Source: a virus
Lineage: Duplodnaviria > Caudoviricetes
Virus record (IMG/VR): IMGVR_UViG_3300023235_001725
Reading direction: 5' to 3' (one strand)
Length of the DNA stretch: 64,000 nucleotides
Notes under the pieces: model-generated
What the model saw: the letters and a program-made list of their open reading frames with translations, nothing else
Databases searched by the model: none
What the model was told of the DNA's origin: nothing
In this document: positions 22,309 to 60,675 of the stretch, piece by piece
How positions within the stretch are numbered: position 1 is the stretch's first letter
Layout: each line of letters opens with the position of its first letter
Made by a program: the position numbers and the translations under genes

Positions 22309-23010
22309 TTATTTTAGTATTATTTTCGTAAAGTTCTCAAAATCTGTTTCAAAATATTTTTCTTCAAAATCATATCTTGAAGGGGATATGGGCAAATAAA
22401 ACCTAATTGCTCCTTCTTTTGATTTCATAACAGGAAAAGTGAATTCGGCTGAATATTCACTTTTCTCTCTTGCCAGTTCTGTTTGAATTAAATCAAGAAA
22501 TTTTGTTTCATCATATTTATCATATTTTGAACCGATACTTACCCAATATTGAGTTTTTAATTCTACAAGACTCTCAATATTCAATAATTTTTGATATTCT
22601 GCTTTGGTATAAATGTATCCAATTGTTTGTTTAAATTTATACCAATCTCGGTAGATATTAGGATATTCGAATCGTCCATTCCACTTGTCTACTATTAGAA
22701 CATAATATGTAGTTCCTTTATAAGTAGTTGTTCTTGTTTGCACTTTTTGAAAGTTTTGGCCTCTACTCGACATCATATGCGGACCTTGCAACGATTTGTA
22801 TTTAACCTTATAATCCTTGTTGTCTGAAATTACGTTTTCATAATCTATCCATTCACCAAGCGTAGAGTTGTTAGCCCATCCTGTTGCTTTTAAAAGAGTT
22901 CCCGATGTTGTTTCAAAACTTATTTTTTCTCTATTTGTTCGTTCTTGTCCAAATATTTGTACAGTGAAAACTGTCAATAAAAGTGCGATAAGTGTTAATT
23001 TAAATTTCAT
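22309..23010 (-). CDS. Secreted hypothetical protein
   Basis: Signal peptide MKFKLTLIALLLTVFTVQIFG; more AT-rich than neighbours. Confidence 0.75.
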   Translation of the reverse strand: MKFKLTLIALLLTVFTVQIFGQERTNREKISFETTSGTLLKATGWANNSTLGEWIDYENVISDNKDYKVKYKSLQGPHMMSSRGQNFQKVQTRTTTYKGTTYYVLIVDKWNGRFEYPNIYRDWYKFKQTIGYIYTKAEYQKLLNIESLVELKTQYWVSIGSKYDKYDETKFLDLIQTELAREKSEYSAEFTFPVMKSKEGAIRFYLPISPSRYDFEEKYFETDFENFTKIILK

Positions 23011-23212
23011 TTTTCTATTTTTTATTCTTACTCGTTTGGCTTTTCAGTTTTCGCCCCGTTTTTAAAATGGTTGCTGGTCTCCACTTTTTTATTTTTTATC
23101 AAAACTGTTCTTCAAGATTATTCAAAATATTTTTTCAATTCTCTTTTCAGTCTACGATGTCGTTTCTTAAACTTGCCCATAATATACGTGCATGAACGGT
23201 AAAGGTTTCGAT

Positions 23213-32582: not shown

Positions 32583-32666
32583 CACGCCGAGCAGAAGTCG
32601 AATCTGCACATCCCTTACGGGCAAGGGTTTTGGAGACCCTCTGTCTCACCAATGAATAGCCGACGT
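32583..32666 (-). tRNA. tRNA-Trp(CCA) with long variable arm
   Basis: AGGGT-CTCCAAA-ACCCT, variable arm TGCCCGTAAGGGAT, G73. Confidence 0.8.
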
Positions 32667-32693
32667 GTATTAATTCTAACGTTGTAATTTTAG

Positions 32694-33996: not shown

Positions 33997-34084
33997 AGGA
34001 AGCGAAGGGAATCCAACCCTCGTCACAATTAAGTGAGCCAGTTTTCAAGACTGGTGCGACAATGACAACATTCGCGTCACTTCC
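33997..34084 (-). tRNA. tRNA-Ser(TGA)
   Basis: CCAGT-CTTGAAA-ACTGG, long variable arm, atypical D- and T-loops. Confidence 0.8.
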
Positions 34085-34116: not shown

Positions 34117-34202
34117 AGGAAGATAGAGGGTTCGAACCCCTGCCGAGCAAACGACACCCAGGGGTTCAAGCCCTGTTCCACACCACTTGCGAGGTACCTT
34201 CC
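34117..34202 (-). tRNA. tRNA-Ser(TGA)
   Basis: CAGGG-CTTGAAC-CCCTG, long variable arm. Confidence 0.88.
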
Positions 34203-34469: not shown

Positions 34470-34560
34470 TACAATAAGTTGCATCTATTCCAAGTTTTTA
34501 TGTAAATATTTAAAAATTATTTTACAATTTACTGATTTTTAGTGTATTGTGAAATAGTAG

Positions 34561-36704
34561 TAAATTATTCCTTTACAGGATGAGGTGATAAACAGGGGTA
34601 TGATGTCAAACCAAGAAGTGCAAAATGTTGTGATTCCCTTACAGGATGAGATGATAAACAGGGGAGGGAGCAACTTCAAATACCTACAAGCTGTTGTGAT
34701 TCCCTTGCAGAATGAGATGATAAACAGGTCTAACGATGGAATAACCACCTTAGGCGAAGTTGTGATTCCCTTGCAGAATGAGATGATAAACAGGTTTAAA
34801 AGTTGAATGCGCCCCGTGCATCCCGTTGTGATTCCCTTGCAGAATGAGATGATAAACAGGTGAGCATTATTCTCTAAACAAAATTTATCTCGAATAAATT
34901 TCAGCCTATTTCAGATTAAACAACAACAATGGAAAATGAAATCGACCGTCTAAATTATCTTTTAACAGCTGTAAACACAGAGAACACATTGAAAGGGCTT
35001 GCACTTGCTGAAATCACCAAAATCTGCTGTCAAAAGTCAAAGAATTTCAGAGATATAAAGCAAATCGAAGACATCCTTCTTAAACTAAAAAATAATCAGC
35101 AGAAATTCCGTTTTAAACAGGAGATAAAATATTTCAAACAGATGGCAGGTAGTTGTGATTCCCTTGCAGAATGAGATGATAAACAGGCGGATTACGATTA
35201 GCCACAGCACCCAACAGTTGTGATTCCCTTGCAGAATGAGATGATAAACAGGCACAGCCAAATAAAGAATTACCAAGATGGTGTTGTGATTCCCTTGCAG
35301 AATGAGATGATAAACAGGTACCAAAACAGAAACATATTTGCTTGCCATGTTGTGATTCCCTTGCAGAATGAGATGATAAACAGGAGGGAATTGATACATC
35401 AGAAAGCCTTTATGTTGTGATTCCCTTGCAGAATGAGATGATAAACAGGGGCAATCGCCTTGAATAATTTTGCTGTTCAGTTGTGATTCCCTTGCAGAAT
35501 GAGATGATAAACAGGAGACTATAATGAATACCGATTTGAGGAAGAGTTGTGATTCCCTTGCAGAATGAGATGATAAACAAGGCAAAGGTCGGGAGCTTGC
35601 AAGCAGATATAGTTGTGATTCCCTTGCAGAATGAGATGATAAACAGGACAAAGGATAAGAAGGGCGTGTAGCTATTAGTTGTGATTCCCTTGCAGAATGA
35701 GATGATAAACAGGCAAAGCAACATCGAATGGAAGCAAGAGAGTAGTTGTGATTCCCTTGCAGAATGAGATGATAAACAGGTTCACCTTCGTTTCGAGGTG
35801 GTTTTTGTCTGTTGTGATTCCCTTGCAGAATGAGATGATAAACAGGGAAGCTTTTGGAACTAATTCCGCTAATCGAGTTGTGATTCCCTTGCAGAATGAG
35901 ATGATAAACAGGGGAATCGAATTCCTTTAGTACGTTCCTTTTGTTGTGATTCCCTTGCAGAATGAGATGATAAACAGGTAGATTAAATCTTAGTCTTCAA
36001 GACCAATCGTTGTGATTCCCTTGCAGAATGAGATGATAAACAGGGACGGTATGCATTCAAAATATCATTGCGCTGTTGTGATTCCCTTGCAGAATGAGAT
36101 GATAAACAGGTAGATTAAATCTTAGTCTTCAAGACCAATCGTTGTGATTCCCTTGCAGAATGAGATGATAAACAGGGACGGTATGCATTCAAAATATCAT
36201 TACGCTGTTGTGATTCCCTTGCAGAATGAGATGATAAACAGGCTACTTCAACTTGACCCAAAAAGACATACAGTTGTGATTCCCTTGCAGAATGAGATGA
36301 TAAACAGGTGCAGTCCAATTCATGATAAACGCATTAAAGTTGTGATTCCCTTGCAGAATGAGATGATAAACAGGTCAATTTCATGTTGGGTGCTGTGACT
36401 AAAGGTTGTGATTCCCTTGCAGAATGAGATGATAAACAGGTTTATTTAAACAATGCAAAAAACAAACCAAGTTGTGATTCCCTTGCAGAATGAGATGATA
36501 AACAGGTGGACCACTCAACCCAAATAACCCGCGCATGTTGTGATTCCCTTGCAGAATGAGATGATAAACAGGTGCACAAAGCTTTAATTATCAAAGGTTC
36601 ACGTTGTGATTCCCTTGCAGAATGAGATGATAAACAGGTGTTTGAAGTTGGCGAACTTGATTCTAAGAGTTGTGATTCCCTTGCAGAATGAGATGATAAA
36701 CAGG
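34561..36704. CRISPR. CRISPR array, 29 repeats of 36 bp, spacers 29-31 bp
   Basis: Repeat GTTGTGATTCCCTTGCAGAATGAGATGATAAACAGG; two leftmost repeats degenerate; one 291-bp interruption (34861-35151); 27 normal spacers; probably transcribed on minus strand with the cas operon. Confidence 0.98.
34929..35174 (+). CDS. Small ORF inside the CRISPR-array insertion
   Basis: MENEIDRLNYLLTAV...; A-rich leader; stop lies inside the next repeat, so the native 3' end is probably lost. Confidence 0.45.
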   Translation: MENEIDRLNYLLTAVNTENTLKGLALAEITKICCQKSKNFRDIKQIEDILLKLKNNQQKFRFKQEIKYFKQMAGSCDSLAE

Positions 36705-36790
36705 GTACCTGTGGCTAATGCGCTAATAAACAAGCAACAACCACATGTACTGGATGGAAAAAAGACGTCAAAGAGCGCTTGCACAAGGAG

Positions 36791-37507
36791 TCAGATGTAG
36801 AGTTTTGAGTTTGTAATCTCCATAACCATTCCAAACCCTATTCCTGTAGATTGTCCCAAACCATAGTCGTGAATAGCTTGAGCAATCTTTTTGTTGCAAT
36901 GTACAACAACGCTGCATACATTTGCTTTGTTCACACTGGTTTTACTTGGGGCTCCAGAAGAACTCATCAAAATATCTCTAACCTTATTGTGGTTTGATTT
37001 CTGAACTTCAATTCTAAAGCCGTCAAATTTTAAAGTGTTGTCAATGTTTGACAAACGTCTTTTTGTTTGTTCAGACAACTCCTCTTCAAACCCATCATCA
37101 TTTAGGGTGTGAAATTCATAACGGCCTCCATTTTTTTTCTTTAGCAAAATGCCAGTTTCAGTGGTTTTAAAAACAGTAAAACCATCATACAAGTCTTCTT
37201 GGATGAACTCAATGCCCGTCAGTTTCATTCCAAATCCAAAATCTTTATTTGCTCCTGCTCCTGCGAGAAGTTTATTTAAAAAGCTCTCGTCTCCAGAGGA
37301 TATAAACAAACTGCCTCCATGAGCGTACTCAATGGATGTTCCGCCTTCTGTAATCGTTCCTCCAATCATCCTAGAGATAACATAGTTAGAAGGTTGATTG
37401 TGATAGAGATTATCTTTTCCTAAGCATTTATGAATGTAACTCACAACGTGCTTAAGGTTATTTGGAACCAACTCCTTTGCGGAGCTAAATTTTAACTGTA
37501 TTCTCAT
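36791..37507 (-). CDS. cas6: Cas6 endoribonuclease (I-B/III-like, not Cas6f)
   Basis: C-terminal G-rich loop YGLGQSTGIGFGMV; 238 aa; adjacent to array. Confidence 0.88.
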   Translation of the reverse strand: MRIQLKFSSAKELVPNNLKHVVSYIHKCLGKDNLYHNQPSNYVISRMIGGTITEGGTSIEYAHGGSLFISSGDESFLNKLLAGAGANKDFGFGMKLTGIEFIQEDLYDGFTVFKTTETGILLKKKNGGRYEFHTLNDDGFEEELSEQTKRRLSNIDNTLKFDGFRIEVQKSNHNKVRDILMSSSGAPSKTSVNKANVCSVVVHCNKKIAQAIHDYGLGQSTGIGFGMVMEITNSKLYI

Positions 37508-38385
37508 GACTCTATTGTAAGTTTAGTGGATATATCTCCTACTCTATCATAACCCTCAATGCTTAGCCTGTTTCCCGATACCACTCTTTCAATCCAAACC
37601 AAGCCTCCATCCAATATAGTTGCCACACCAGCTGAGTTTTCAAGGACTTCTTTGTCTTCTTCATCAAGCGGCACAATAAGGGTTCCGCTCAAGCGAATCG
37701 TTTTATCTATGCCATTGGGAACAACCAGCATAAGTCCTTTTGCGATAGAGTCCTTAGCCATCTCCATAGGGTCGTTTTTATCAGTAGGAGTCTTATTTCT
37801 CAGCCAGTTAACGACACCCGTTTTTCCAACTTTACGTTCTCTAAAATGAGAGAGCAAAGCTTGTTTAGAGGCTGAGTTTAAAGATTGCTTAAAAATATCA
37901 GGCACATCTTCTACTGGAACTTTTCTAATATTTGAGTGGCCCGTTGCCTCTATGAGCATTGTGATGAAATCACCATAATGCTCTTTTAGGTAGGCTTCAA
38001 TCAAATCCCAAGTGAGGTTTGTTATTTTGGCGTTTGAGTTCCAAAAAGCTTTCCTTGTGCGGCATATCTCTTTAATTTCTCGAACATCCCCTTTTTTAGT
38101 AACCCAAGTGGGCACTTCAATCTTTAGGAAGCTGTTTTTTGCCTTCTCAATCAATCTATCCTGCTTCTGATAGACACAGGCCCCAAAAAAAGGGACTGGT
38201 CTTTCATTAAAAAGCACGTGCAAGACATTTGAAATCTGATGATGTGTTAAGTAGGACTCAAATTGAGGGAGCCCCTTTCGAATCTCACCTGCGTCTTTAT
38301 TTCCAAGAAACAATTTATCTTTCGTGTCTTTATGGTTACGAAACAAAACTGCATCTTTAAACTTCAAAACCATAAATTCTTTCAT
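37504..38385 (-). CDS. cas5: Cas5fv-like subunit (type I-F2 variant)
   Basis: LTHHQISNVLHVLFNER and LSGTLIVPLD..EVLENSAGVATILDGGLVWI resemble Cas5fv motifs; enlarged at 293 aa. Confidence 0.65.
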   Translation of the reverse strand: MKEFMVLKFKDAVLFRNHKDTKDKLFLGNKDAGEIRKGLPQFESYLTHHQISNVLHVLFNERPVPFFGACVYQKQDRLIEKAKNSFLKIEVPTWVTKKGDVREIKEICRTRKAFWNSNAKITNLTWDLIEAYLKEHYGDFITMLIEATGHSNIRKVPVEDVPDIFKQSLNSASKQALLSHFRERKVGKTGVVNWLRNKTPTDKNDPMEMAKDSIAKGLMLVVPNGIDKTIRLSGTLIVPLDEEDKEVLENSAGVATILDGGLVWIERVVSGNRLSIEGYDRVGDISTKLTIES

Positions 38386-39464
38386 GCTGGGGTGGTTTCG
38401 GTTTTCTTTACTTTCTCTGCTTTTTGCTTTGCGGCTTTGGCTTTCTTTTCCACGCTATTCTTTTTTAAAGTTGCTCGTTCTTCTTCCGCGTACTTCTTTA
38501 ATTCTTCATGAAGTTTTTTTGCATCTCCAGTAACATCTTCCGTATATGCTTCAAACACTTCATACTGCAGAGCTTGAATATTTTCTATTGAATTGATTTC
38601 GACCCAACCCTCTTCGCTGTTAAACCTGTCAATCAAAGGATTGGAAACCAGTTTCACCATCAGCTTCTCTTTGCGTGCATAAGCACTGCTTCGACTGATG
38701 TCCAACGTAAGAAGCTTTTCTAAAAATACAGAAACTAATAAACGAACCTGGTCATCTGTGAATTTGAATCCACGCTCAGCAATGTTTACAGAACTTCCTC
38801 TCATTTGGAAAAATCCAAGCTCATTATCAAATGAGCCAAAGTGAATGTCGGCGTACTTTTTGAATAAATCAAAATGGTCGGGATTAAAACCATAACGTCC
38901 CATGATTTCGTCACAAGAGTAAAACTGAAGCTCTTTCAGGTTTATAGCACCTTGAGATGAATACTTAATCTTCCCAATTGTTTCTTTTTTGTAGATAGAA
39001 TTATCACTTTTTTCTTCGTCTGCTTCATAGCTGATTTTCTCACCAGACTTTGAATGGAATTCGAGACGCGAAAGAGCATCGCACGTTTGTTCGGCAGCTA
39101 CTAGTGTAATGGCTCCTTTTCTTTTTAACGTATCGTTTTTAATGGCATGCAAGTGCCCATTAAGAATGCTTTCTGGATGGGCAAGGTTTGCATAAAGTAA
39201 ATCTTTATTGTGTGTAAGCTTTGGTGTTTGAGACACTTTATCATACATCGCATGCTTCATGCAGGTAGGCGAAATAACTAATTTGTAACGAGGCTCTTTT
39301 CCATCGTTGTAAATGTTTCTCTTTGCATACATTACGTTGCTATGGTATGATTTTAAGAAAGGGAATTTTTCTCCAATATGGAACCGTTGCTCATTGCTAT
39401 CGTAATTAACAACGCCATTGCCTTCAATTTCAATTTTAAAAAGAATTGACTTTACTTTGCTCAT
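38382..39464 (-). CDS. cas7: Cas7fv-like backbone subunit (type I-F2 variant)
   Basis: KSILFKIEIEGNGVVNY, LVISPTCMKH, KETIGKIKYSSQGAINLKELQF and TDDQVRLLV parallel Shewanella Cas7fv motifs as recalled. Confidence 0.8.
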   Translation of the reverse strand: MSKVKSILFKIEIEGNGVVNYDSNEQRFHIGEKFPFLKSYHSNVMYAKRNIYNDGKEPRYKLVISPTCMKHAMYDKVSQTPKLTHNKDLLYANLAHPESILNGHLHAIKNDTLKRKGAITLVAAEQTCDALSRLEFHSKSGEKISYEADEEKSDNSIYKKETIGKIKYSSQGAINLKELQFYSCDEIMGRYGFNPDHFDLFKKYADIHFGSFDNELGFFQMRGSSVNIAERGFKFTDDQVRLLVSVFLEKLLTLDISRSSAYARKEKLMVKLVSNPLIDRFNSEEGWVEINSIENIQALQYEVFEAYTEDVTGDAKKLHEELKKYAEEERATLKKNSVEKKAKAAKQKAEKVKKTETTPA

Positions 39465-39506
39465 GGTAATCTGTTTAAAGGTTAATATGTAATTTCTATG
39501 AATTGT

Positions 39507-41834
39507 TTACTCGTAAATTGGCTGGTCAAACTCTTCCAGTAAAGTTTTTTTAATATATCCGTAAATGTCATGATATTCCATATCCATCCTCGGATACGGC
39601 ATTGATTTGTATTTCGCCATTATACGCAATAATTCAAGATTTGTGCTATGCTTTGGAACTTTTAAAAATCTAGTGTAATCAAAAGCGCAATCTGGCTCAT
39701 CGTTAAGATGTTTAATTATCTTAAATACTTTTGCTAGTGCGTTGGAGTCTTCATGGAAGTCTTCGGGTATAGAATCATAAATAGGAGTTGATTTAGGCTG
39801 TGTCCATTCTTTTTTTGCCCATTTTTTAGCAGTAAAAAAGATTTCATTTCCTTTGCTTCTATAGCTAGTTTCTTGTATTTTATGGACTTCCGAGTTTTCA
39901 CTTTTAATCGTTAACCTATTAGGATAAATTTTCTCATGTAAATCCATGCGGCTTTGTCGATATTTTGTGTTTAACCAGATTCTTCTTAAGGCTTCATTTT
40001 CTTTACAATGTTTATTATACAAAGAATATAGGTTATCTAAAGTTGTTTCCCCTTGACTTTGTGTTAGAAAATTAAACCATAAGTCAGACAGTTCTCGTGA
40101 GTACATTGTTTCGCGGGCTCTATTCTCACTTCGTCCAGAATTATCTGAAGGGATTCGATATGTTAGAATTTCAGACTGGTCATCATAATCTCCCCACCTG
40201 TCGACACGGCCTACTCTTTGAAGAGTAGCTTCTGGAGACAGGCAACTTTCAATCAAATGCCTAAAAGAAACATCTAAAGATGCCTGTGCTATTGGGCTCG
40301 CTATTACGTGTTCTTTTTCAATATTTCTGTCGGATTGCTTTCCATAGTTTTGAAGAATAACGCTTAATCGCGCTTGATTGTCGTCGTCCTCAAATTTTCC
40401 ATGAAACAAAATAGTATCTTCATTGTGTTTGTGCTTATTTCTTTGACACTCAACTATAGAATTAGAGATAAAAAGAACAGGGCTTTTTTTACTTTCAGAT
40501 ATTCTAGAACGCCCCTCTTTTGTAGTGAGTTTGTATGATTTATTGTGGACAGCAGGAGCATGTTCAAATTTTCCAGGCAAATGGGCTGTTGAGTTGTCAA
40601 ATGAATCCCAATAAACTGATAAATCAAGTGGGGTTGCGGACAGCAGTAAAGAGCGTCCGTTTGTCATCTGATGTCTTACCTTCATTAGATTTATAAAACC
40701 AGCCAGTAAAGCCCCGTCCGACACTAGCTCATGATACTCATCAAATACAACATCTGCATCGGATACCATTAATAAATCAATATCGTTACAATGCTCTTTT
40801 GTCGGACGTAAAAAGTTATCTACGTTGGTTACAATGATATCGCTTGAAAACTTTATTCCTAAATCTGAATTTGAGGCCTGTTGTTTTCCAGCGTAATATA
40901 ATTCTACTGAAGTTTCAATTCCTGCATTTTTAAGCTCTCTTAAGATGTTGTGGTACACTGATTGTGCCACAGCATTTCTTGGACACACCCAAATAAGCCG
41001 TTTATTGTTGACAGTGCTCCAAAGTAAACCTAGAAGTGTTTTTCCGTATCCAGCAGGGGCGTTGATTTGAACAGTCTTAAACGAGGTCGTCCTAGATGCT
41101 AAAGCAACTTGTTGTGTCCATCTTTTTTCATGTCCAGGATATGGGCATTTAGTAAAAGCGTAACGGTGTTGTTGAATCAGTCGTTCATTTATAGTTTTTT
41201 TAATTTCATCAACTGTAAAATCTCCTAATTCACTAACTAAGTGGTCAGCTCTTACCACGCACATGCGAATAATCGTGTTGTCAACGTTGAGGTCGCTCGT
41301 CTCGTTAAAATCTCTAATATAGTAATGAGGGCTTGATGTTTCAGCTATTCTTGGCCTATCAAGGACTTGGCCAGGAAATAATTCTTCGACGAATTCAATC
41401 ATTCTATCGATAGAATTATCTTTCTTCTTCCGAACCCACTCAAGAATAGACGCATCTGTGTGCTTGCCCATTACATTGTTAATGCCGTGATGCCAGTATA
41501 CTGCTTCAGCAACTTGTCTTAGCTCCTCTGAGTCAAAGCTGATGTACATTCTTACAAATGCCCATCCCACTTCATTGTGCGAAAAAATAATGTCTTTTTT
41601 CTTTGTTTTAGTGGATTTACCATTTAAAGAGTTTCGGAGTAAAGTTTGAAACTCGGTTTCGGCTTTTCCAATATCATGAAGAAGCGCCGCTTTGCGGATA
41701 ACTGATATAAAATGTTTTTTTTCTGTATCTGAGGTAACTATAACTGAGTCGGCAATATATTCCGCAACCTCAGCAACCTTTCGACTGTGCTCAATCAGGG
41801 TTTCGCCAGTACTTTTTGCTAATAACTCATCCAT
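39507..41834 (-). CDS. cas3: Cas3 HD nuclease-helicase (no Cas2 fusion)
   Basis: EHS...LLHDIGK HD domain, RADH, APAGYGKT, FDEYH, LSAT, QASLDV, QRVGRVDR; 775 aa. Confidence 0.95.
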   Translation of the reverse strand: MDELLAKSTGETLIEHSRKVAEVAEYIADSVIVTSDTEKKHFISVIRKAALLHDIGKAETEFQTLLRNSLNGKSTKTKKKDIIFSHNEVGWAFVRMYISFDSEELRQVAEAVYWHHGINNVMGKHTDASILEWVRKKKDNSIDRMIEFVEELFPGQVLDRPRIAETSSPHYYIRDFNETSDLNVDNTIIRMCVVRADHLVSELGDFTVDEIKKTINERLIQQHRYAFTKCPYPGHEKRWTQQVALASRTTSFKTVQINAPAGYGKTLLGLLWSTVNNKRLIWVCPRNAVAQSVYHNILRELKNAGIETSVELYYAGKQQASNSDLGIKFSSDIIVTNVDNFLRPTKEHCNDIDLLMVSDADVVFDEYHELVSDGALLAGFINLMKVRHQMTNGRSLLLSATPLDLSVYWDSFDNSTAHLPGKFEHAPAVHNKSYKLTTKEGRSRISESKKSPVLFISNSIVECQRNKHKHNEDTILFHGKFEDDDNQARLSVILQNYGKQSDRNIEKEHVIASPIAQASLDVSFRHLIESCLSPEATLQRVGRVDRWGDYDDQSEILTYRIPSDNSGRSENRARETMYSRELSDLWFNFLTQSQGETTLDNLYSLYNKHCKENEALRRIWLNTKYRQSRMDLHEKIYPNRLTIKSENSEVHKIQETSYRSKGNEIFFTAKKWAKKEWTQPKSTPIYDSIPEDFHEDSNALAKVFKIIKHLNDEPDCAFDYTRFLKVPKHSTNLELLRIMAKYKSMPYPRMDMEYHDIYGYIKKTLLEEFDQPIYE

Positions 41835-51761: not shown

Positions 51762-52451
51762 TTAAAAAACTCTCTGTGTTAGTCTCTCAAATCCGTCCTT
51801 CCATGTTTCGTGTTTATCAAATCTTTCACCACAACCAGTGGTTCCACCTTTCCAGCTTCCTCTTCTCTTTCCTACTTCTGAAGAGAATTCAACGTCAATT
51901 GTACGACTCACTTGGCTGAACATAGTTGTTCGTTTGAACCATCTCATTCTCCATTCTCTCTCCGAGATGGATATATCGGCATTAACCACGTTCAGTTCTC
52001 CATTTGGAGTGTGCTTATCAACATACGGCATATTAGTTCTCCACATTTTCTCTTTCCATTCGTCTTTATAAAAGTCTTGTTTGTCGCCTTTTATTGAATG
52101 AACCCATGTTCCATCCTTCAGTTTAATGCTGTGGCGAACGTGGTCGAGATTCCAGGGCATATTAATGTATTTAGATTTCTTTCCGTAACGAATAACAAAG
52201 CTCTGACTCTGCCAACCATCCTGATACCAATAACAGCCGTACTGTTCTGAGTCGCCGTAATCCTTTCTCTTGTGTGACCAGGGCATACTCCAAAACAGGC
52301 TCCAGAATAGGAATGCTATATGGATTTGGGGTCTCTCATCATCAGAATACCCGTGGCACTCGTAAGTTAAGTGAAAAGCAACTGGTTTTCCCCAGCTGTA
52401 TCTATAAAATGATATATTATCGTTTTCAAACTTCTTTGTGGGGTTTCGCAT
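51762..52451 (-). CDS. Hypothetical phage protein
   Basis: 229 aa; VEFSSEVGKRRGSWKGGTTGCG. Confidence 0.75.
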   Translation of the reverse strand: MRNPTKKFENDNISFYRYSWGKPVAFHLTYECHGYSDDERPQIHIAFLFWSLFWSMPWSHKRKDYGDSEQYGCYWYQDGWQSQSFVIRYGKKSKYINMPWNLDHVRHSIKLKDGTWVHSIKGDKQDFYKDEWKEKMWRTNMPYVDKHTPNGELNVVNADISISEREWRMRWFKRTTMFSQVSRTIDVEFSSEVGKRRGSWKGGTTGCGERFDKHETWKDGFERLTQRVF

Positions 52452-52523
52452 TCTACAAATGTAATCAATTTTACAAATATAAAAACTGTTCGAAGGGCGG
52501 CCTTTTTCTATCTGTAATTCAAG

Positions 52524-52595
52524 AGGGGCGTAGGGGGTTCGAACCCCTGACGTACAGGGTTAAAGCCTGATGTTCTACCTCTGAACTAACGCCCC
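52524..52595 (-). tRNA. Putative ochre suppressor tRNA (anticodon TTA)
   Basis: GGGGCGT/ACGCCCC acceptor, U73, CAGG-CTTTAAC-CCTG with canonical 7-nt loop, T-loop TTCGAAC. Confidence 0.8.
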
Positions 52596-53554: not shown

Positions 53555-53971
53555 TTAATCCTCGCAAGGCAAGTGACCATATTTATGAAAATACTTTAAT
53601 GGACGTTTCAATTTTCCATTAATCCAAAAACCCCATTTTCGTCGTGGCTTAAACGCTAATACAAATGTCCAGCAAGACACATCTTTAGGAAGCACTACAT
53701 TATGTATATGTTCTGCTTTTCTAAAGCGAATGCTTCCTTGTCTTAACTTATCGATTCCATTTGGGCTTATGTCTAAATAGCCTCCTTTCAGTATGAAAGT
53801 GATAAAATCCCAAGCATGGTCATGCTGGTGCGCGATTGGTTCACTTCTTATGAAGTTGTGAACTCGGAACGAAAATAAGTAGAAATTGAACACCCATCTG
53901 TAAGCATACGGGCAACTTTTTTCACCTAAAGCTTCGTTCCATCTGAACTGAATTGGTCTGAACTTTTTCAT
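53555..53971 (-). CDS. Cupin-like phage protein
   Basis: HQHDHAWDFITFILKGGYL, HIHNV, KWGFW. Confidence 0.7.
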   Translation of the reverse strand: MKKFRPIQFRWNEALGEKSCPYAYRWVFNFYLFSFRVHNFIRSEPIAHQHDHAWDFITFILKGGYLDISPNGIDKLRQGSIRFRKAEHIHNVVLPKDVSCWTFVLAFKPRRKWGFWINGKLKRPLKYFHKYGHLPCED

Positions 53972-54090
53972 TTCTTGATTCGGATTATAGCTGAGGGTAC
54001 AGTTTTGTAATCCTCAACAAATGAATAATCTGGGACCATTGTCACGGAGTAGTTCTTATCTTGAAGCCACTCACGGAATTCTTTGTGCAG

Positions 54091-54480
54091 TTAAGTCTCT
54101 CCAACCATCCAAAAAGGAGATGTTAAGCTTGAGATTGTTCCGCCTGGTGCAAGTTGGTCATACATGTGCATGATGTGTTTGCAATCGACATTGTCTCGAA
54201 AGTTAGGACAGGCAATGACGTAATCATATGGTGTCTGGGCTTCGAATCGGAAGAAGTCTGAGCCAACCAACTCATATTCTTTTTCTTTCAGTGTGACTCG
54301 GCATTCTTGATTAAGTTCTACACAGTCAATTTTACACTGTTGGAATTTTTCTTGAACCCCGTCCGCCAATACTCCTGTGCCTGCAGATGGTTCTAGTATT
54401 CTCGCTCCAGGCTTCGGGTTTAATCTCTCACATAAAGCATCAATCACCACTTGGGGTGTAATTCTGTTTGTCTCTACCAT
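54091..54480 (-). CDS. Short class I SAM-dependent methyltransferase-like protein
   Basis: ILEPSAGTG, DCVELN, DF; CPNF in place of NPPF. Confidence 0.7.
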   Translation of the reverse strand: MVETNRITPQVVIDALCERLNPKPGARILEPSAGTGVLADGVQEKFQQCKIDCVELNQECRVTLKEKEYELVGSDFFRFEAQTPYDYVIACPNFRDNVDCKHIMHMYDQLAPGGTISSLTSPFWMVGET

Positions 54481-54502: not shown

Positions 54503-54593
54503 TGGTGAACGGAATAGGAATCGAACCTACAACTTTTCTTATGGCCGCTAAGCCATCTAGTTTTGCGCCTTCCATCCTTTTAAGTACTCGTTC
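54503..54593 (-). ncRNA. Degenerate tRNA-like RNA, CCA encoded
   Basis: Acceptor GAACGAG/TCCGTTC-A-CCA and T-arm GTAGG-TTCGATT-CCTAT; no canonical anticodon arm. Confidence 0.55.
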
Positions 54594-54634
54594 GAACATT
54601 TCCTTAAAAATCTTGGTGCAATCCGCCCATGTTG

Positions 54635-54686
54635 TGGCGTGGGGAGAAACGAATCTCACGCGAATCTTCTTTCAGATTCTCACGCC
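54635..54686 (-). ncRNA. Mini-tRNA type A
   Basis: GGCGTG acceptor, one hairpin GAATCT..AGATTC, T-like arm GAGA-TTCGTT-TCTC. Confidence 0.65.
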
Positions 54687-54746
54687 ATGTGGGGGAAGTT
54701 GTTTATGAGAACAGCGCCTCCCCAAGCATCTCACTGCTCATTATAA

Positions 54747-54913
54747 TGGTCCCGCGAGAGGGTTCTGCCCCCCATCATTTCTTCAACATCAACTACTAAC
54801 TCACTCTTGTGGCCACGCAAGTGAGTTTTTGTGTTTGCATCCCGAACTGAGTCCTTTCGGTTCGTCTTCCACATTATCAGTGTGGTGCTTTAACATATCT
54901 AAGCTATCGCAGG
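54747..54913 (-). ncRNA. tRNA-Ile(GAT)-like RNA with about 90-nt insertion in variable region, CCA encoded
   Basis: CCTGCGA/TCGCGGG acceptor, CCACA-CTGATAA-TGTGG, insert with TTGCGTGGCCACAAG hairpin, degenerate T-loop. Confidence 0.65.
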
Positions 54914-54919
54914 AAATTG

Positions 54920-55062
54920 TCCTGGAGGAAGGGCTCGAACCCCCGACCCCCACCGTTCGATTCCAATTCTCTACTTCACAACCCTTGTGGCCACGCAGGT
55001 TGCGTTTCAATCCTTTTCCTCATTTATCAGGGTGGTGCTCTAACCAACTGAGCTACTCCAGG
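54920..55062 (-). ncRNA. tRNA-Ile(GAT) with about 70-nt insertion in the anticodon loop
   Basis: CCTGGAG/CTCCAGG, canonical D and T arms, CCACC-CTGATAA-[insert]-GGTGG; insert contains CTGCGTGGCCACAAG. Confidence 0.7.
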
Positions 55063-55065
55063 AAG

Positions 55066-55111
55066 TGCCGCTAACAGGAATCTCACCTATTCTAGTGCTA
55101 ATGCAAGCGGC
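55066..55111 (-). ncRNA. Mini-tRNA type B
   Basis: GCCGCT/AGCGGC stem, connector GCATTAGCACTAG, T-like arm TAGG-TGAGATT-CCTG. Confidence 0.6.
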
Positions 55112-55112
55112 G

Positions 55113-55192
55113 TGGTGGTGAGGGAAGGACTTGAACCTTCGACCTCCAGGGTTTTAAAGCCTGGTGCTCTGAACCAACTGAGCTACCTCACC
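55113..55192 (-). tRNA. Non-canonical tRNA with 9-nt anticodon loop (CTTTAAAAC), CCA encoded
   Basis: GGTGAGG/CCTCACC, canonical D/T arms, CCAGG-CTTTAAAAC-CCTGG. Confidence 0.7.
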
Positions 55193-55195
55193 AAG

Positions 55196-55241
55196 AGGCC
55201 CCAGGAAGACTTTCTCTTCCTCTAGTGCTAATGCAGGGGCC
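55196..55241 (-). ncRNA. Mini-tRNA type B
   Basis: GGCCCC/GGGGCC stem, connector GCATTAGCACTAGA, arm GGAAG-AGAAAGT-CTTCC. Confidence 0.6.
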
Positions 55242-55242
55242 G

Positions 55243-55296
55243 TGGTGGCGTGGGAAGAAACGAATCTCCCGCGAATCCCTAATGGACTCTCACGCC
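55243..55296 (-). ncRNA. Mini-tRNA type A, CCA encoded
   Basis: GGCGTG/CACGCC-A-CCA, hairpin GAGTCC-ATTA-GGGATTC, T-like arm GGAGA-TTCGTT-TCTTC. Confidence 0.68.
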
Positions 55297-55332
55297 TTTT
55301 TTAAATTCCAACACGTCAATGAACTTTTGTTG

Positions 55333-55406
55333 TGACAGGAGAAAGATTCGAACTCTCGTCCCCAGGTTTTTAAGGCCTGGTGCTCTAACCGCTGAGCTAT
55401 CCCGTC
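55333..55406 (-). tRNA. Non-canonical tRNA with 9-nt anticodon loop (CCTTAAAAA)
   Basis: GACGGGA/TCCTGTC, CCAGG-CCTTAAAAA-CCTGG, T-loop TTCGAAT. Confidence 0.7.
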
Positions 55407-55455
55407 TGGTGGCGGATTCAGGACTTTAACCTGAACTGGTGCTTATGCATCCGCC
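55407..55455 (-). ncRNA. Mini-tRNA type B, CCA encoded
   Basis: GGCGGAT/ATCCGCC-A-CCA, connector GCATAAGCACCAGT, arm TCAGG-TTAAAGT-CCTGA. Confidence 0.68.
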
Positions 55456-55459
55456 GTAG

Positions 55460-55506
55460 TGGTGCGGGGACAATCGAATGTCCCATGAGCCAAAAGCTCT
55501 CGCACC
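55460..55506 (-). ncRNA. Mini-tRNA type A
   Basis: GGTGCG/CGCACC-A, hairpin GAGC-TTTT-GGCTC, T-like arm GGACA-TTCGAT-TGTCC. Confidence 0.65.
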
Positions 55507-55527: not shown

Positions 55528-55947
55528 TCATGCGGCTTCTTTACAATTACAACTCTTGAGAGTTGGTTGATTCGTAAATTCTTTGAAAGCAAGTGGTAGA
55601 CTAGATAACCAACGGGCAGATTCTTTCCCTGGTTCTACGGTAATAGACGTGAACTGGTTGTCGAGGTCAGGCTCCTGGAAGGAACTGAAATTAATACCTT
55701 TTTGCGTGAGTTTGTCTCGGAGCTCGATGAGTTCTTGCTCGTCTTTGACTGATAAGAATCCTAAATATGGATTCGATAACCATTTTTCATAAATGGCTGT
55801 GTATTCTTGATTGAATACGTGGAATGAATGCATTCCTTGAGTTGCCTGCGCTCCAGGAGCGAGGTCTCGTCTTACGACGATGTAAAGCTTTAAGTTTTTC
55901 TTCTCTGTAGAAGGGTGTACTTACTGGTTGTCTAATGCTTTTTTCAT
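55528..55947 (-). CDS. Pth2-like peptidyl-tRNA hydrolase with in-frame TAA at codon 9
   Basis: MKKALDNQ*VHPSTEKKNLKLYIVVRRDLAPGAQATQGMH...LSVKDEQEL...FQEPDL; no ATG/GTG/TTG between TAA (55921-55923) and the YIVVRRDL motif. Confidence 0.7.
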
Positions 55948-58891: not shown

Positions 58892-59062
58892 AAAGAAGAA
58901 TACTCTACATCGATGTAAAAGTAAAGAAAACCCTGCCAAAATTAATCGACAGGGTTTTCTAAAAGCTTTTAATCCTTGTGTGACCTAAGTGATTGGCATC
59001 CACCCGTAGGTGAACCGATGTGTTTTTCGGGGATACACGTTTGCCACAAGTACTATTATCCC

Positions 59063-60583
59063 TTATTCCTTAGTTGCAAGCTCAGCAAAATCAACATAAT
59101 TGTTGATAGTGTTGATAAGCGCTCTTTTGTCGACTTCTAGATTGTCAATGACATCAAAAATCTTTTCAGAGAATCCTCTTAGCGCGAATACGTTCTTCTC
59201 TGGGAACTGCATGCTTCCGCTTGCAGCCAAGTTGAACTCGTAAACTTTACAGTCCTGAGCACCGTACTTCTTCTTGTACGCTGCAAACTGAGTTTTTGGA
59301 GTATTGTACTCCATCCACGCTTGCATGTCCGAGAAGATGAATACACGGTCGTATTTCGCCTTCATCTTAACGAAGATGTCTTGGAAGTTCGTTCCGTGAC
59401 CAACCCTGTACTTGCCAACGTTGCCGTAGCCTTGGTTTGTATCAACAATCCAGTTTGCCATACCCATTACTGAGTCATTCACGTTAACTGGAAGGTACAT
59501 TGCGTGTGTTCCAAACGACATTACATCAGCATCACTAGCCTTGGCCATCATGGCTCCAAATAGAGCTGCCACTTTATTCCTGTAAGTTTTACCTCCAGCA
59601 ATTGGGCAATCCATAGAACCTGACAGGTCAATTACGACTGCAGTGTTTCCATCAAACTTTGGAATGTTAGAACAAGCTAGGTCTACGGCGGTGTTAAGCG
59701 CTCTTTGAACTTTCTTAGACTTTGTTCCAGTCAACACTGTAATCTCGTCGAGTGCAGTGATGTATCTGAATGGAAGAATCAGTGACTTCTTAATTCTTGC
59801 CTCTGTAGTCAACAGCTCGCATGCCTTGTTAAGAACCTCGTCAGAAGCATCTTGGATGATGTTTCTAAGGTTTCTTAGAAGAGCAAACTGTCCAATCTTA
59901 CCTGACATAACCAAGTCAGACCAAGCCTCAGCTTTGTTTGCGGCTTTCTCCTCAGAGGTCTTCGCTCCCTGGCCAGCTGCGGACAGCTTAGACTCGAAAG
60001 TGTTTTCACTCTTTAGGGTTCCAGCAACAAGCTCGGCAAGTGCCTTCTCGTTTCTAGCCGTTCCTTTTGGACGAACCAAGTTTACAACGTCAACAAGCGA
60101 TACTTCATTCTTGTCTCCTCTGTACTTGGCAAGCTGGTATGCATCGAACTTTCCGAAAGCTTTCTTGAAACCTTTCTTTAGCGCGTTTGGCAAAGATGCT
60201 TTCTTACCCTCTCTACCGAAGTAGTAGGACATAATCTCAGTCATGTCGTCTGGACGACGTACAATAGCTGCGTAAAACTCTTTAGCCCAGGCCTTACCTG
60301 AGGCGTGCTTAGCGATTTCACCCGCAAGTACGTGGGTGATAGAACGCATTCCAAACTCGTTACGGGCATAGACAGCCGCCTTTGCTGCGAACTCTGGGTC
60401 CACTTTGCTAAGAACGGATGTCAACTCCTTTATTTGGTCTCCTGCCTTCGAATAGAAGTCATCAGACACAAACGAGTTCAACAGAATCGTCACAAGCTCT
60501 AACTCTGGAGTCGACTTATAAGCCTCTCCTCCCGCTTTGTTGGTAGTCATTTCTACCTTTGATTTTTCGTTAAATTTTGACAT
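59063..60583 (-). CDS. TROVE-domain Ro60-like RNA-binding protein
   Basis: Start MSKFNEK; NKAGGEAY, ARNEFGMRS, FDAYQLAKYR, ALLRNLRN, vWA DLSGSM, FSDMQ, GFSEKIF. Confidence 0.95.
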   Translation of the reverse strand: MSKFNEKSKVEMTTNKAGGEAYKSTPELELVTILLNSFVSDDFYSKAGDQIKELTSVLSKVDPEFAAKAAVYARNEFGMRSITHVLAGEIAKHASGKAWAKEFYAAIVRRPDDMTEIMSYYFGREGKKASLPNALKKGFKKAFGKFDAYQLAKYRGDKNEVSLVDVVNLVRPKGTARNEKALAELVAGTLKSENTFESKLSAAGQGAKTSEEKAANKAEAWSDLVMSGKIGQFALLRNLRNIIQDASDEVLNKACELLTTEARIKKSLILPFRYITALDEITVLTGTKSKKVQRALNTAVDLACSNIPKFDGNTAVVIDLSGSMDCPIAGGKTYRNKVAALFGAMMAKASDADVMSFGTHAMYLPVNVNDSVMGMANWIVDTNQGYGNVGKYRVGHGTNFQDIFVKMKAKYDRVFIFSDMQAWMEYNTPKTQFAAYKKKYGAQDCKVYEFNLAASGSMQFPEKNVFALRGFSEKIFDVIDNLEVDKRALINTINNYVDFAELATKE

Positions 60584-60635
60584 CTCGTCGTTGTTTATAA
60601 TTGTTGTTATTCTATTAATTCTTTGTTTTTGGCGC

Positions 60636-60675
60636 ATAAAAAAAAAGCACCACATCTTTGCAGAGGGTGCTTTTT
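60636..60675 (-). terminator. Terminator-like hairpin between Y-like RNAs and the TROVE start
   Basis: AAAAAGCACC...GGTGCTTTTT with U-run on minus strand. Confidence 0.55.

Follow-up and report, generated by a model that had tools for sequence, protein, structure and literature searches.

A 64,000-nt stretch of viral DNA (Duplodnaviria, Caudoviricetes; IMG/VR record IMGVR_UViG_3300023235_001725), here called the window, contains an array of six mini-tRNA elements between a gene for a Pth2-like peptidyl-tRNA hydrolase and a small methyltransferase gene. The elements form two families, both with an acceptor-like stem and a T-like arm and both without an anticodon arm. Judged by their recurrence in related phages and by the manner in which their stems change, they are very probably real, selected RNAs derived from tRNA.

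Six mini-tRNA elements of two families

A first reading of this DNA from its letters alone (the sequence-only reading) had proposed six mini-tRNAs of two types, each retaining the acceptor and T portions of a tRNA without its anticodon arm. Individual folds and family alignments agreed with this anatomy, and all six elements were located on the minus strand. Type A comprises three elements of 51-56 nt and type B three of 49 nt, interleaved with aberrant tRNAs:

55456..55506, minus strand: type A mini-tRNA A3; 6-bp acceptor-like stem, variable hairpin, 6-bp T-like arm with UUCGAU loop, tail ACUAC
55407..55455, minus strand: type B mini-tRNA B3; 6-bp acceptor stem, 3-bp mini hairpin with AUAA loop, linker CCAG, 6-bp T-like arm
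55242..55296, minus strand: type A mini-tRNA A2; tail ACCAC
55193..55241, minus strand: type B mini-tRNA B2; tail UCUU, abutting the tRNA tX2
55063..55111, minus strand: type B mini-tRNA B1; tail ACUU, abutting tRNA-Ile1
54631..54686, minus strand: type A mini-tRNA A1; tail ACAAC

The common plan is a three-way junction composed of a 6-bp closing stem, a side hairpin in the position where the D arm would be, and a 6-bp T-like hairpin. No spacer separates the T-like hairpin from the closing stem, so that both can stack to 12 bp like the top half of a tRNA. All of these 6 + 6 acceptor/T pairs are supported by covariation, and a coaxial helix of about 12 bp, as in a minihelix substrate of RNase P (the class of M3 RNA and pre-4.5S RNA), is present in six of six elements. 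The side hairpin of type A has 5-6 bp and a variable loop. That of type B has 3 bp and an A-U-N-A loop and is followed by C-N-N-G; the sequence-only reading had taken this stretch for a single-stranded 'GCATWAGCAC connector', a view that was abandoned given that two of the three pairs covary in more distant relatives. Folded alone, five of the six elements adopted the shared plan with z scores of -3.5 to -5.2 against shuffled sequences (A3, -5.2; A2, -4.5; A1, -3.5). B1 was weaker (-2.1) and had an alternative fold when taken by itself, its assignment being supported by the family alignment.

All tails begin with the discriminator followed by C. Two elements encode CCA past the discriminator, as had been claimed, namely B3 (ACCA) and A2 (ACCAC). 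RCCA is encoded in these two only; the others, with A/U-C-N-N, would depend on the CCA enzyme for completion of their ends. Among paralogs with unrelated stems, there is no variation in the loop letters A-U-N-A and N-N-A-R-A-K-U (the latter the T-like loop of type B, 7 nt in B3) or in the C that follows the discriminator. Spacing between the units of the array is 1-6 nt beyond the discriminator base. Type B elements always lie 3-5 nt ahead of a tRNA 5' end, the ACCA tail of B3 abutting the tRNA tX1 so closely that the next base is its position +1, and type A tails measure 5-6 nt.

Conservation of the array in related phages

Relatives were found via the flanking proteins (Pth2-like homologs with 65-82% identity, methyltransferases with 65-86%). 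Seven further distinct arrays showed the same Pth2-like gene/array/methyltransferase synteny (L008, L010, L011, L012, L050, L051 and L052; L008 is identical to L009, and L012 to L013). Both families occurred in six of these seven contigs, and conservation in relatives, on which the sequence-only reading had staked its case, was thus found. A3 and B3 were present in seven of the eight genomes (A3 with orthologs in six relatives), A1 in six of the seven whose contig covers the site, A2 in five, and B2 and B1 likewise in five. B2 and tX2 were lost together in L008 and L011, in L008 as part of a block B2-tX2-B1.

Two covariance models, R1 (type A) and R2 (type B), were derived from the initial five genomes. 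They scored 62-79 bits on the array; in the window, R1 gave 67.4, 69.3 and 65.2 bits for A3, A2 and A1, and R2 gave 72.2, 70.4 and 67.8 bits for B3, B2 and B1. Elements of two more distant genomes scored 49-77 bits, so that the comparison across phages that had been proposed as a check recovered both families. Neither model matched anything elsewhere in the 64 kb. Nothing was found on about 225 kb of unrelated loci either, where the best score (27 bits) fell in a pattern-selected coding sequence.

Wider searches remained without further members. An exact-pattern scan of IMG/VR for the type B core plus a following tRNA gave five matches, all in one coding gene family without a tRNA, and scans of IMG/VR with the Pth2-like and methyltransferase proteins gave no match. 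A degenerate type B pattern had 34 matches in JGI metagenome contigs, all with at most 27 bits under R2 and the best of them a coding sequence.

Selection on shape and on sequence

Pairing was counted in MAFFT alignments of all 35 copies from seven genomes.

Type A (18 copies): pairing in 98.1% of cells, two-sided changes in 11 of 18 pairs, 35-62% pairing in slid registers
Type B (17 copies): pairing in 99.6% of cells, two-sided changes in 11 of 15 pairs, 40-47% pairing in slid registers

Neither the pairing nor the covariation score observed was equaled in any of 500 shuffles. The claim that the stems differ but stay paired, which argues for selection rather than decay, thus stood on compensated pairs. 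In the mini hairpin of type B, U-A is replaced by C-G and G-C by A-U in L051 and L052, which marks it as a helix rather than a tag of fixed letters. Some 15 G-U cells of type A would read as A-C if the complementary strand were the coding one, so that the coding strand is fixed as minus; on the opposite strand, scores did not exceed 12 bits.

Mean nucleotide identity between genomes (five genomes) was 96.7% for B3, 97.3% for B2, 86.9% for B1 and 78-86% for the type A elements, compared with 75.4% for the Pth2-like and 80.6% for the methyltransferase coding sequence. By these values, type A behaves as a shape under selection, and in B3 and B2 the letters matter too. That the elements are decaying, functionless tRNA pseudogenes is accordingly extremely improbable. 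The array is in flux, with blocks deleted in some relatives, and many tRNAs of the phage are aberrant, as decay would have it; plain decay is nevertheless refuted by the covariation, with pairing kept at 98-99.6% through 22 compensated positions in two families, and it does not account for a B3 and B2 identity above that of neighboring coding genes.

Probable derivation from suppressor-type tRNAs

The two aberrant tRNAs that follow B3 and B2 are:

55332..55406, minus strand: tRNA tX1; 9-nt anticodon loop CCUUAAAAA
55113..55192, minus strand: tRNA tX2; 9-nt anticodon loop CUUUAAAAC

Both anticodon loops contain UUA. In L010 and L011, the tX1 ortholog has lost exactly the anticodon arm and part of the D loop; what remains is a 7-bp acceptor stem with a D-like hairpin and the T arm. 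The D stem of this ortholog carries a compensated pair between the two genomes (GCU/AGC versus GUU/AAC). The tX2 slot of L051 and L052 holds two other minis without an anticodon arm that keep acceptor and T arms, one with a D-like hairpin and the other with a GNRA-capped hairpin, the latter resembling type A with a canonical T loop. Arm loss in the tX1 and tX2 slots, followed by retention, was tolerated or even favored and illustrates how, as far as these sequences tell, such mini-tRNAs arise. The type B core (U, GC-AUUA-GC, A, CYAG) aligns with several parts of tX, namely U8, the outer pairs of the D stem, A26 and the 5' strand of the CCAGG anticodon stem, and type B is therefore best read as a probable old derivative of the same suppressor-type tRNA.

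The tX1 ortholog of L051 is a canonical UUA suppressor with a 7-nt loop. Other tX1/tX2 orthologs vary: the 9-nt loop of L010 contains UCA, and the call for L052 is a 4-base 'gcaa'.

The Rfam tRNA model (RF00005) matched no element of the six at E up to 10, and ARAGORN called neither a tRNA nor a transfer-messenger RNA (tmRNA) there. No Rfam family covers them: the only overlaps at E up to 10 were RAGATH-4 (21.5 bits) and YrlA (22.3 bits), both far below their gathering scores. In full-text literature searches, no phage-encoded genes for anticodon-less or minihelix tRNA mimics were found described.

Possible function of the mini-tRNAs

The absence of an anticodon loop speaks against two roles that the sequence-only reading had offered, since the minis can neither decoy anticodon nucleases nor give the A-site signal of an uncharged tRNA; on anatomy, both are unlikely. 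Our preferred explanation, held tentatively, is that they are non-decoding, trans-acting mimics of the tRNA acceptor end. The minis and neighboring tRNAs would be co-transcribed as one precursor between the Pth2-like and methyltransferase genes, and RNase P would cut each unit at its 5' end. Bacterial RNase P gauges the 12-bp stack of acceptor and T stems and also cuts minimal helices. With units only 3-6 nt apart, each cut would also leave the upstream unit with a tRNA-like 3' tail; bacterial RNase P handles T4 tRNA dimers separated by less than 5 nt (PMC11143913). Each A or B unit would thereby be excised like a tRNA, with a 3-6-nt tail that starts with the discriminator and C and could be finished by exonucleases and the CCA-adding enzyme. 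The released RNAs of 46-55 nt may then occupy or soak up a factor that reads the acceptor end. Candidates are an enzyme that handles tRNA and a host toxin that attacks the CCA or aminoacyl end, and the setting would be an infection relying on suppressor tRNAs of the phage itself.

This explanation is preferred because B3 and B2 are conserved at the level of letters, three paralogs with different acceptor stems are kept, arm-less tRNAs have repeatedly been retained, B3 encodes ACCA, and the neighbors are a Pth2-like hydrolase, suppressor tRNAs and anti-defense genes. The ACCA of B3 is present in every genome with an A discriminator and is CCCA in L051. A more specific form, in which the operon is a counter-defense module for the tRNA acceptor end and B3 and its paralogs are made in bulk as toxin bait, is rather unlikely. 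If true, the bait would be aimed at host toxins that alter or cleave the 3' end of tRNA, for instance by CCA pyrophosphorylation, nucleotidyl addition or aminoacyl acetylation; cleaning of damaged ends would fall to the Pth2-like enzyme, and bait and enzyme would jointly keep the suppressor tRNAs working.

Several observations weigh against a role as a trans-acting mimic. L050 has neither A nor B elements and keeps the flanking genes and both tRNA-Ile genes, and in L011 and L050 a plain hairpin abutting tRNA-Ile is all that is left of B1, its stem carrying a compensated change in L011. The elements are thus dispensable, and part of the value of B1 may be purely local. The strict adjacency of type B elements and tRNAs fits a role in cis at least as well as one in trans. 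The T-like loops, 6 nt long in type A (UUCGUU or UUCGAU) and N-N-A-R-A-K-U in type B, depart from the canonical UUCRANY, with A3 roughly conforming, and type B has no equivalent of G18G19, its A-U-N-A side loop having no GG; that tRNA enzymes recognize the elements is thus a presumption. No RNA run was among the sequencing runs listed for this DNA, and the contigs of four other salt-lake DNA runs (of 24 listed) were identical and offered no informative variants.

Nearly as likely as the trans mimic is punctuation in cis similar to that by t-elements, a possibility to be taken seriously, in which the folds recruit RNase P or RNase Z to separate the Pth2 mRNA, the tRNAs and the methyltransferase mRNA, the cut pieces are capped with stable structures, and the released minis are by-products. 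The placement is that of t-elements, as used in plant mitochondria (PMC1920247): A3 begins 21 nt past the Pth2-like stop codon, A1 of L012 ends about 25 nt before the methyltransferase start, and the units lie in one gene run. Every B abuts a tRNA 5' end, the loss of B2 accompanies that of tX2, B1 shrinks to a plain hairpin at the same spot, and reading of the 12-bp stack and elbow by RNase P could explain the conserved loops. However, the adjacent real tRNAs already provide cut sites every 75 nt, to which A-B pairs add nothing obvious. A signal of shape only should drift as type A does, whereas B3 and B2 are more conserved than the following tRNA and the coding genes, and three B paralogs that differ in their acceptor stems persist next to one another. 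An antisense action of the type B core was considered as well; its matches in the window with up to two mismatches occurred at chance level.

Two further explanations are less likely. In the first, the minis would work like Y RNAs with the Ro60/TROVE ring, whose gene lies 3.5 kb upstream, as its partners or its substrates: they would either bind it in the way of the tRNA-like YrlA of bacteria or have their short 3' tails threaded in. The Ro60 homolog (TROVE and vWA domains, 59063-60655) shares synteny with the array in L008 and in the P0008 contig, and YrlA RNAs are tRNA mimics that RNase P can cut and to which CCA can be added (PMC4201824). The YrlA match, however, lies far under the gathering score of 69 for this family (RF02553) and spans two elements, B3 and half of tX1, with flagged mispairs. 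The Ro-binding motif GNCGAAN0-1G is present in none of the six elements, its occurrences in the window being at three unrelated places, one of them in the T arm of tX2. Distant Ro60 loci (L001 and L002, 44-48% protein identity) have tRNAs nearby and no A or B element, and a better Y-RNA candidate, conserved in L008, lies directly past the Ro60 stop codon; this explanation is thus improbable. More doubtful still are charged carriers, that is, minis, B3 with its ACCA foremost, aminoacylated by a host synthetase that reads acceptor stems only and acting as aminoacyl donors off the ribosome or entering the ribosome without decoding. A 12-bp acceptor/T helix with N73-CCA is the minimal substrate of several synthetases and of EF-Tu. 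The acceptor stem of B3 is almost invariant, and a peptidyl-tRNA hydrolase gene heads the operon. Against this, neither the G3-U70 mark of alanine nor the G-1 mark of histidine is present in the six elements (position 3-70 is C-G, U-A or U-G in all 35 copies), the discriminator A is changed to C in L051, and no transferase using such a donor was seen in the window.

Phage tRNA genes are usually read as a codon supply or as spares against anticodon nucleases. Here, the anticodon arm is the part that is repeatedly discarded while the remainder is under strong selection, which points to a use of the tRNA shape unrelated to decoding, be it the acceptor-end mimic or an RNA-processing grammar of phage operons. 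Both families are new to Rfam and definable by covariance models, and no paper describing them was found. The same compact operon also carries suppressor-type tRNAs, intron-bearing tRNAs and a stop-gated peptidyl-tRNA hydrolase gene.

Genomic setting of the array

On the minus strand, the order is the Pth2-like gene at the head (stop at 55528), A3, B3, tX1, a conserved spacer, A2, B2, tX2, B1, the tRNA-Ile with a 70-nt insertion, a second interrupted tRNA-Ile, conserved hairpins, A1 and a tRNA-like RNA of about 125 nt, followed 3' by the methyltransferase gene (start at 54480), which closes the array. Besides the elements and tX tRNAs listed above, the features are:

55528..55947, minus strand: Pth2-like gene, array head; in-frame TAA at codon 9, kept in all relatives
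54920..55062, minus strand: tRNA-Ile(GAU) with a 70-nt insertion after the anticodon; Rfam tRNA 49.9 bits; array context
54750..54913, minus strand: second tRNA-Ile(GAU)-like gene with a longer insertion, a sequence reading; weak Rfam match on the 5' part; conserved in the array alignment
54503..54629, minus strand: tRNA-like RNA of about 125 nt, of the same operon and kind and outside the six; four-genome consensus fold
53968..54480, minus strand: small methyltransferase gene, array close; conserved in-frame TAA

The TAA of the Pth2-like gene is at 55921-55923 (minus strand; context CAG TAA GTA) and that of the methyltransferase gene at 54091-54093 (minus strand; GET-TAA-L), each at the same codon in every readable relative. 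Distant Pth2 homologs of unrelated phage contigs lie directly beside ordinary tRNA genes (L014, 4792-4983; L015, 1284-1439) without mini-tRNAs; these two neighborhoods indicate that the link between Pth2 and tRNA genes is recurrent.

The tRNA-like RNA of about 125 nt merges a partial odd tRNA of ARAGORN and Rfam (54506-54593) with the segment preceding it. Its acceptor stem is long-range and has 7-8 bp (GGGCGGA/UCCGUUC); the middle is branched, the T arm canonical and the tail ACCA. Thirteen of its 38 pairs are compensated (four genomes), G3-U70 is present in three of the four, and its 5' end is B3-like. The segment 54594-54630 had been considered as a 'degenerate B'; this was ruled out, as it forms the 5' strand of this RNA.

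The insertions of the two tRNA-Ile(GAU) genes (about 70 and 110 nt; 54750-55062, minus strand) share a GCGUGGCCACAAG hairpin, are kept in eight of eight genomes and are far below group I intron size. The spacer GTTCATTGACRTRTTGG after tX1 (55298-55331, minus strand) is kept in seven genomes and is -35-box-like, but only 4 nt separate it from the next element in L051. The spacer GTTCATTGAC as a promoter for the next unit was ruled out, for in L051 the next element begins 4 nt past the hexamer.

The window has a G+C content of 39%, its genes lie mostly on the minus strand, and it holds more than 20 tRNA or tRNA-like genes. Its DNA is present in many salt-lake metagenome runs, and a protein index places its own Pth2-like protein on a contig of 446,956 bp. 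Just downstream of the array are the anti-CBASS gene Acb3 (51762-52451) and an ART-like gene, and an ochre suppressor tRNA is at 52523-52595; the neighborhood of the array is one of counter-defense and translation. The cargo of the window is that of a large phage, with the Ro60/TROVE protein, ClpB-like ATPases, an RNA ligase, Acb3, Dam and NUDIX proteins, and also Cas3 and Cas6 with a CRISPR array of 29 repeats.

Between the Ro60/TROVE stop codon and a terminator lies a candidate Y RNA of about 80 nt (58966-59052, minus strand; L008, 4488-4575), known from two sequences only, whose ends form a closing stem with two inner hairpins and which has no GNCGAAN0-1G. The phage-borne CRISPR array has repeats of 36 nt and spacers of 30 nt and adjoins Cas6, two unassigned genes and Cas3 with an HD domain and a helicase (34560-36733 and 36791-41834); its repeat showed no similarity to the mini-tRNAs. 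Further long tRNA-like genes show up solely as sub-threshold matches of tRNA-Sec type (29-37 bits) at 32583-32667, 33998-34084 and 34118-34202 (minus strand), without an ARAGORN call, and a full-length DUF805 RNA motif (78.5 bits) at 23021-23089 (minus strand), upstream of the gene 22309-23010.

Comparison with known tRNA-like RNAs

The mini-tRNAs resemble t-elements and signals of the mascRNA type in being acceptor/T folds without decoding, located inside longer transcripts at mRNA boundaries. RNase P or RNase Z is presumed to cut both (for plant mitochondrial t-elements, PMC1920247). In contrast to t-elements, the minis occur as six copies of two conserved families within a phage tRNA array, packed against real tRNAs, with sequence conservation above that of coding genes and no sequence relation to t-elements.

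Among phage RNAs, dimeric T4 pre-tRNAs have the same unit spacing as the packed A and B elements and are processed by RNase P (PMC11143913). The M3 RNA of phi80 and the C4 antisense RNA of P1/P7 are short RNase P substrates recognized by a helix and a 3' RCCA-like end (PMC11143913). These are single genes of other architectures, and C4 has a known antisense target, whereas the A and B RNAs are tRNA-derived three-way junctions for which no complementarity to a target was detected.

YrlA is a non-decoding tRNA mimic encoded near a Ro60 gene, and that of M. smegmatis is cut by RNase P and receives CCA; the ends of YrlA form the Ro-binding stem that carries GNCGAAN0-1G (PMC4201824). YrlA is about 110 nt long with an internal tRNA-like part, whereas the A and B RNAs are half this size, end in the acceptor stem and are devoid of the motif.

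Like the minis, tag-less tmRNA reduced to its tRNA-like domain and synthetic acceptor/T minihelices combine an acceptor stem with a T arm, lack an anticodon arm and have a diminished D region. The minis differ in having no G3-U70, no ARAGORN call and a 6/6 instead of a 7/5 split of the helix. Finally, tRNAs with 8/4 and 9/3 splits keep 12 stacked acceptor/T pairs (PMC5389517); the tRNAs described there are complete and decoding, whereas the minis reach 12 pairs as 6/6 with the anticodon arm gone.

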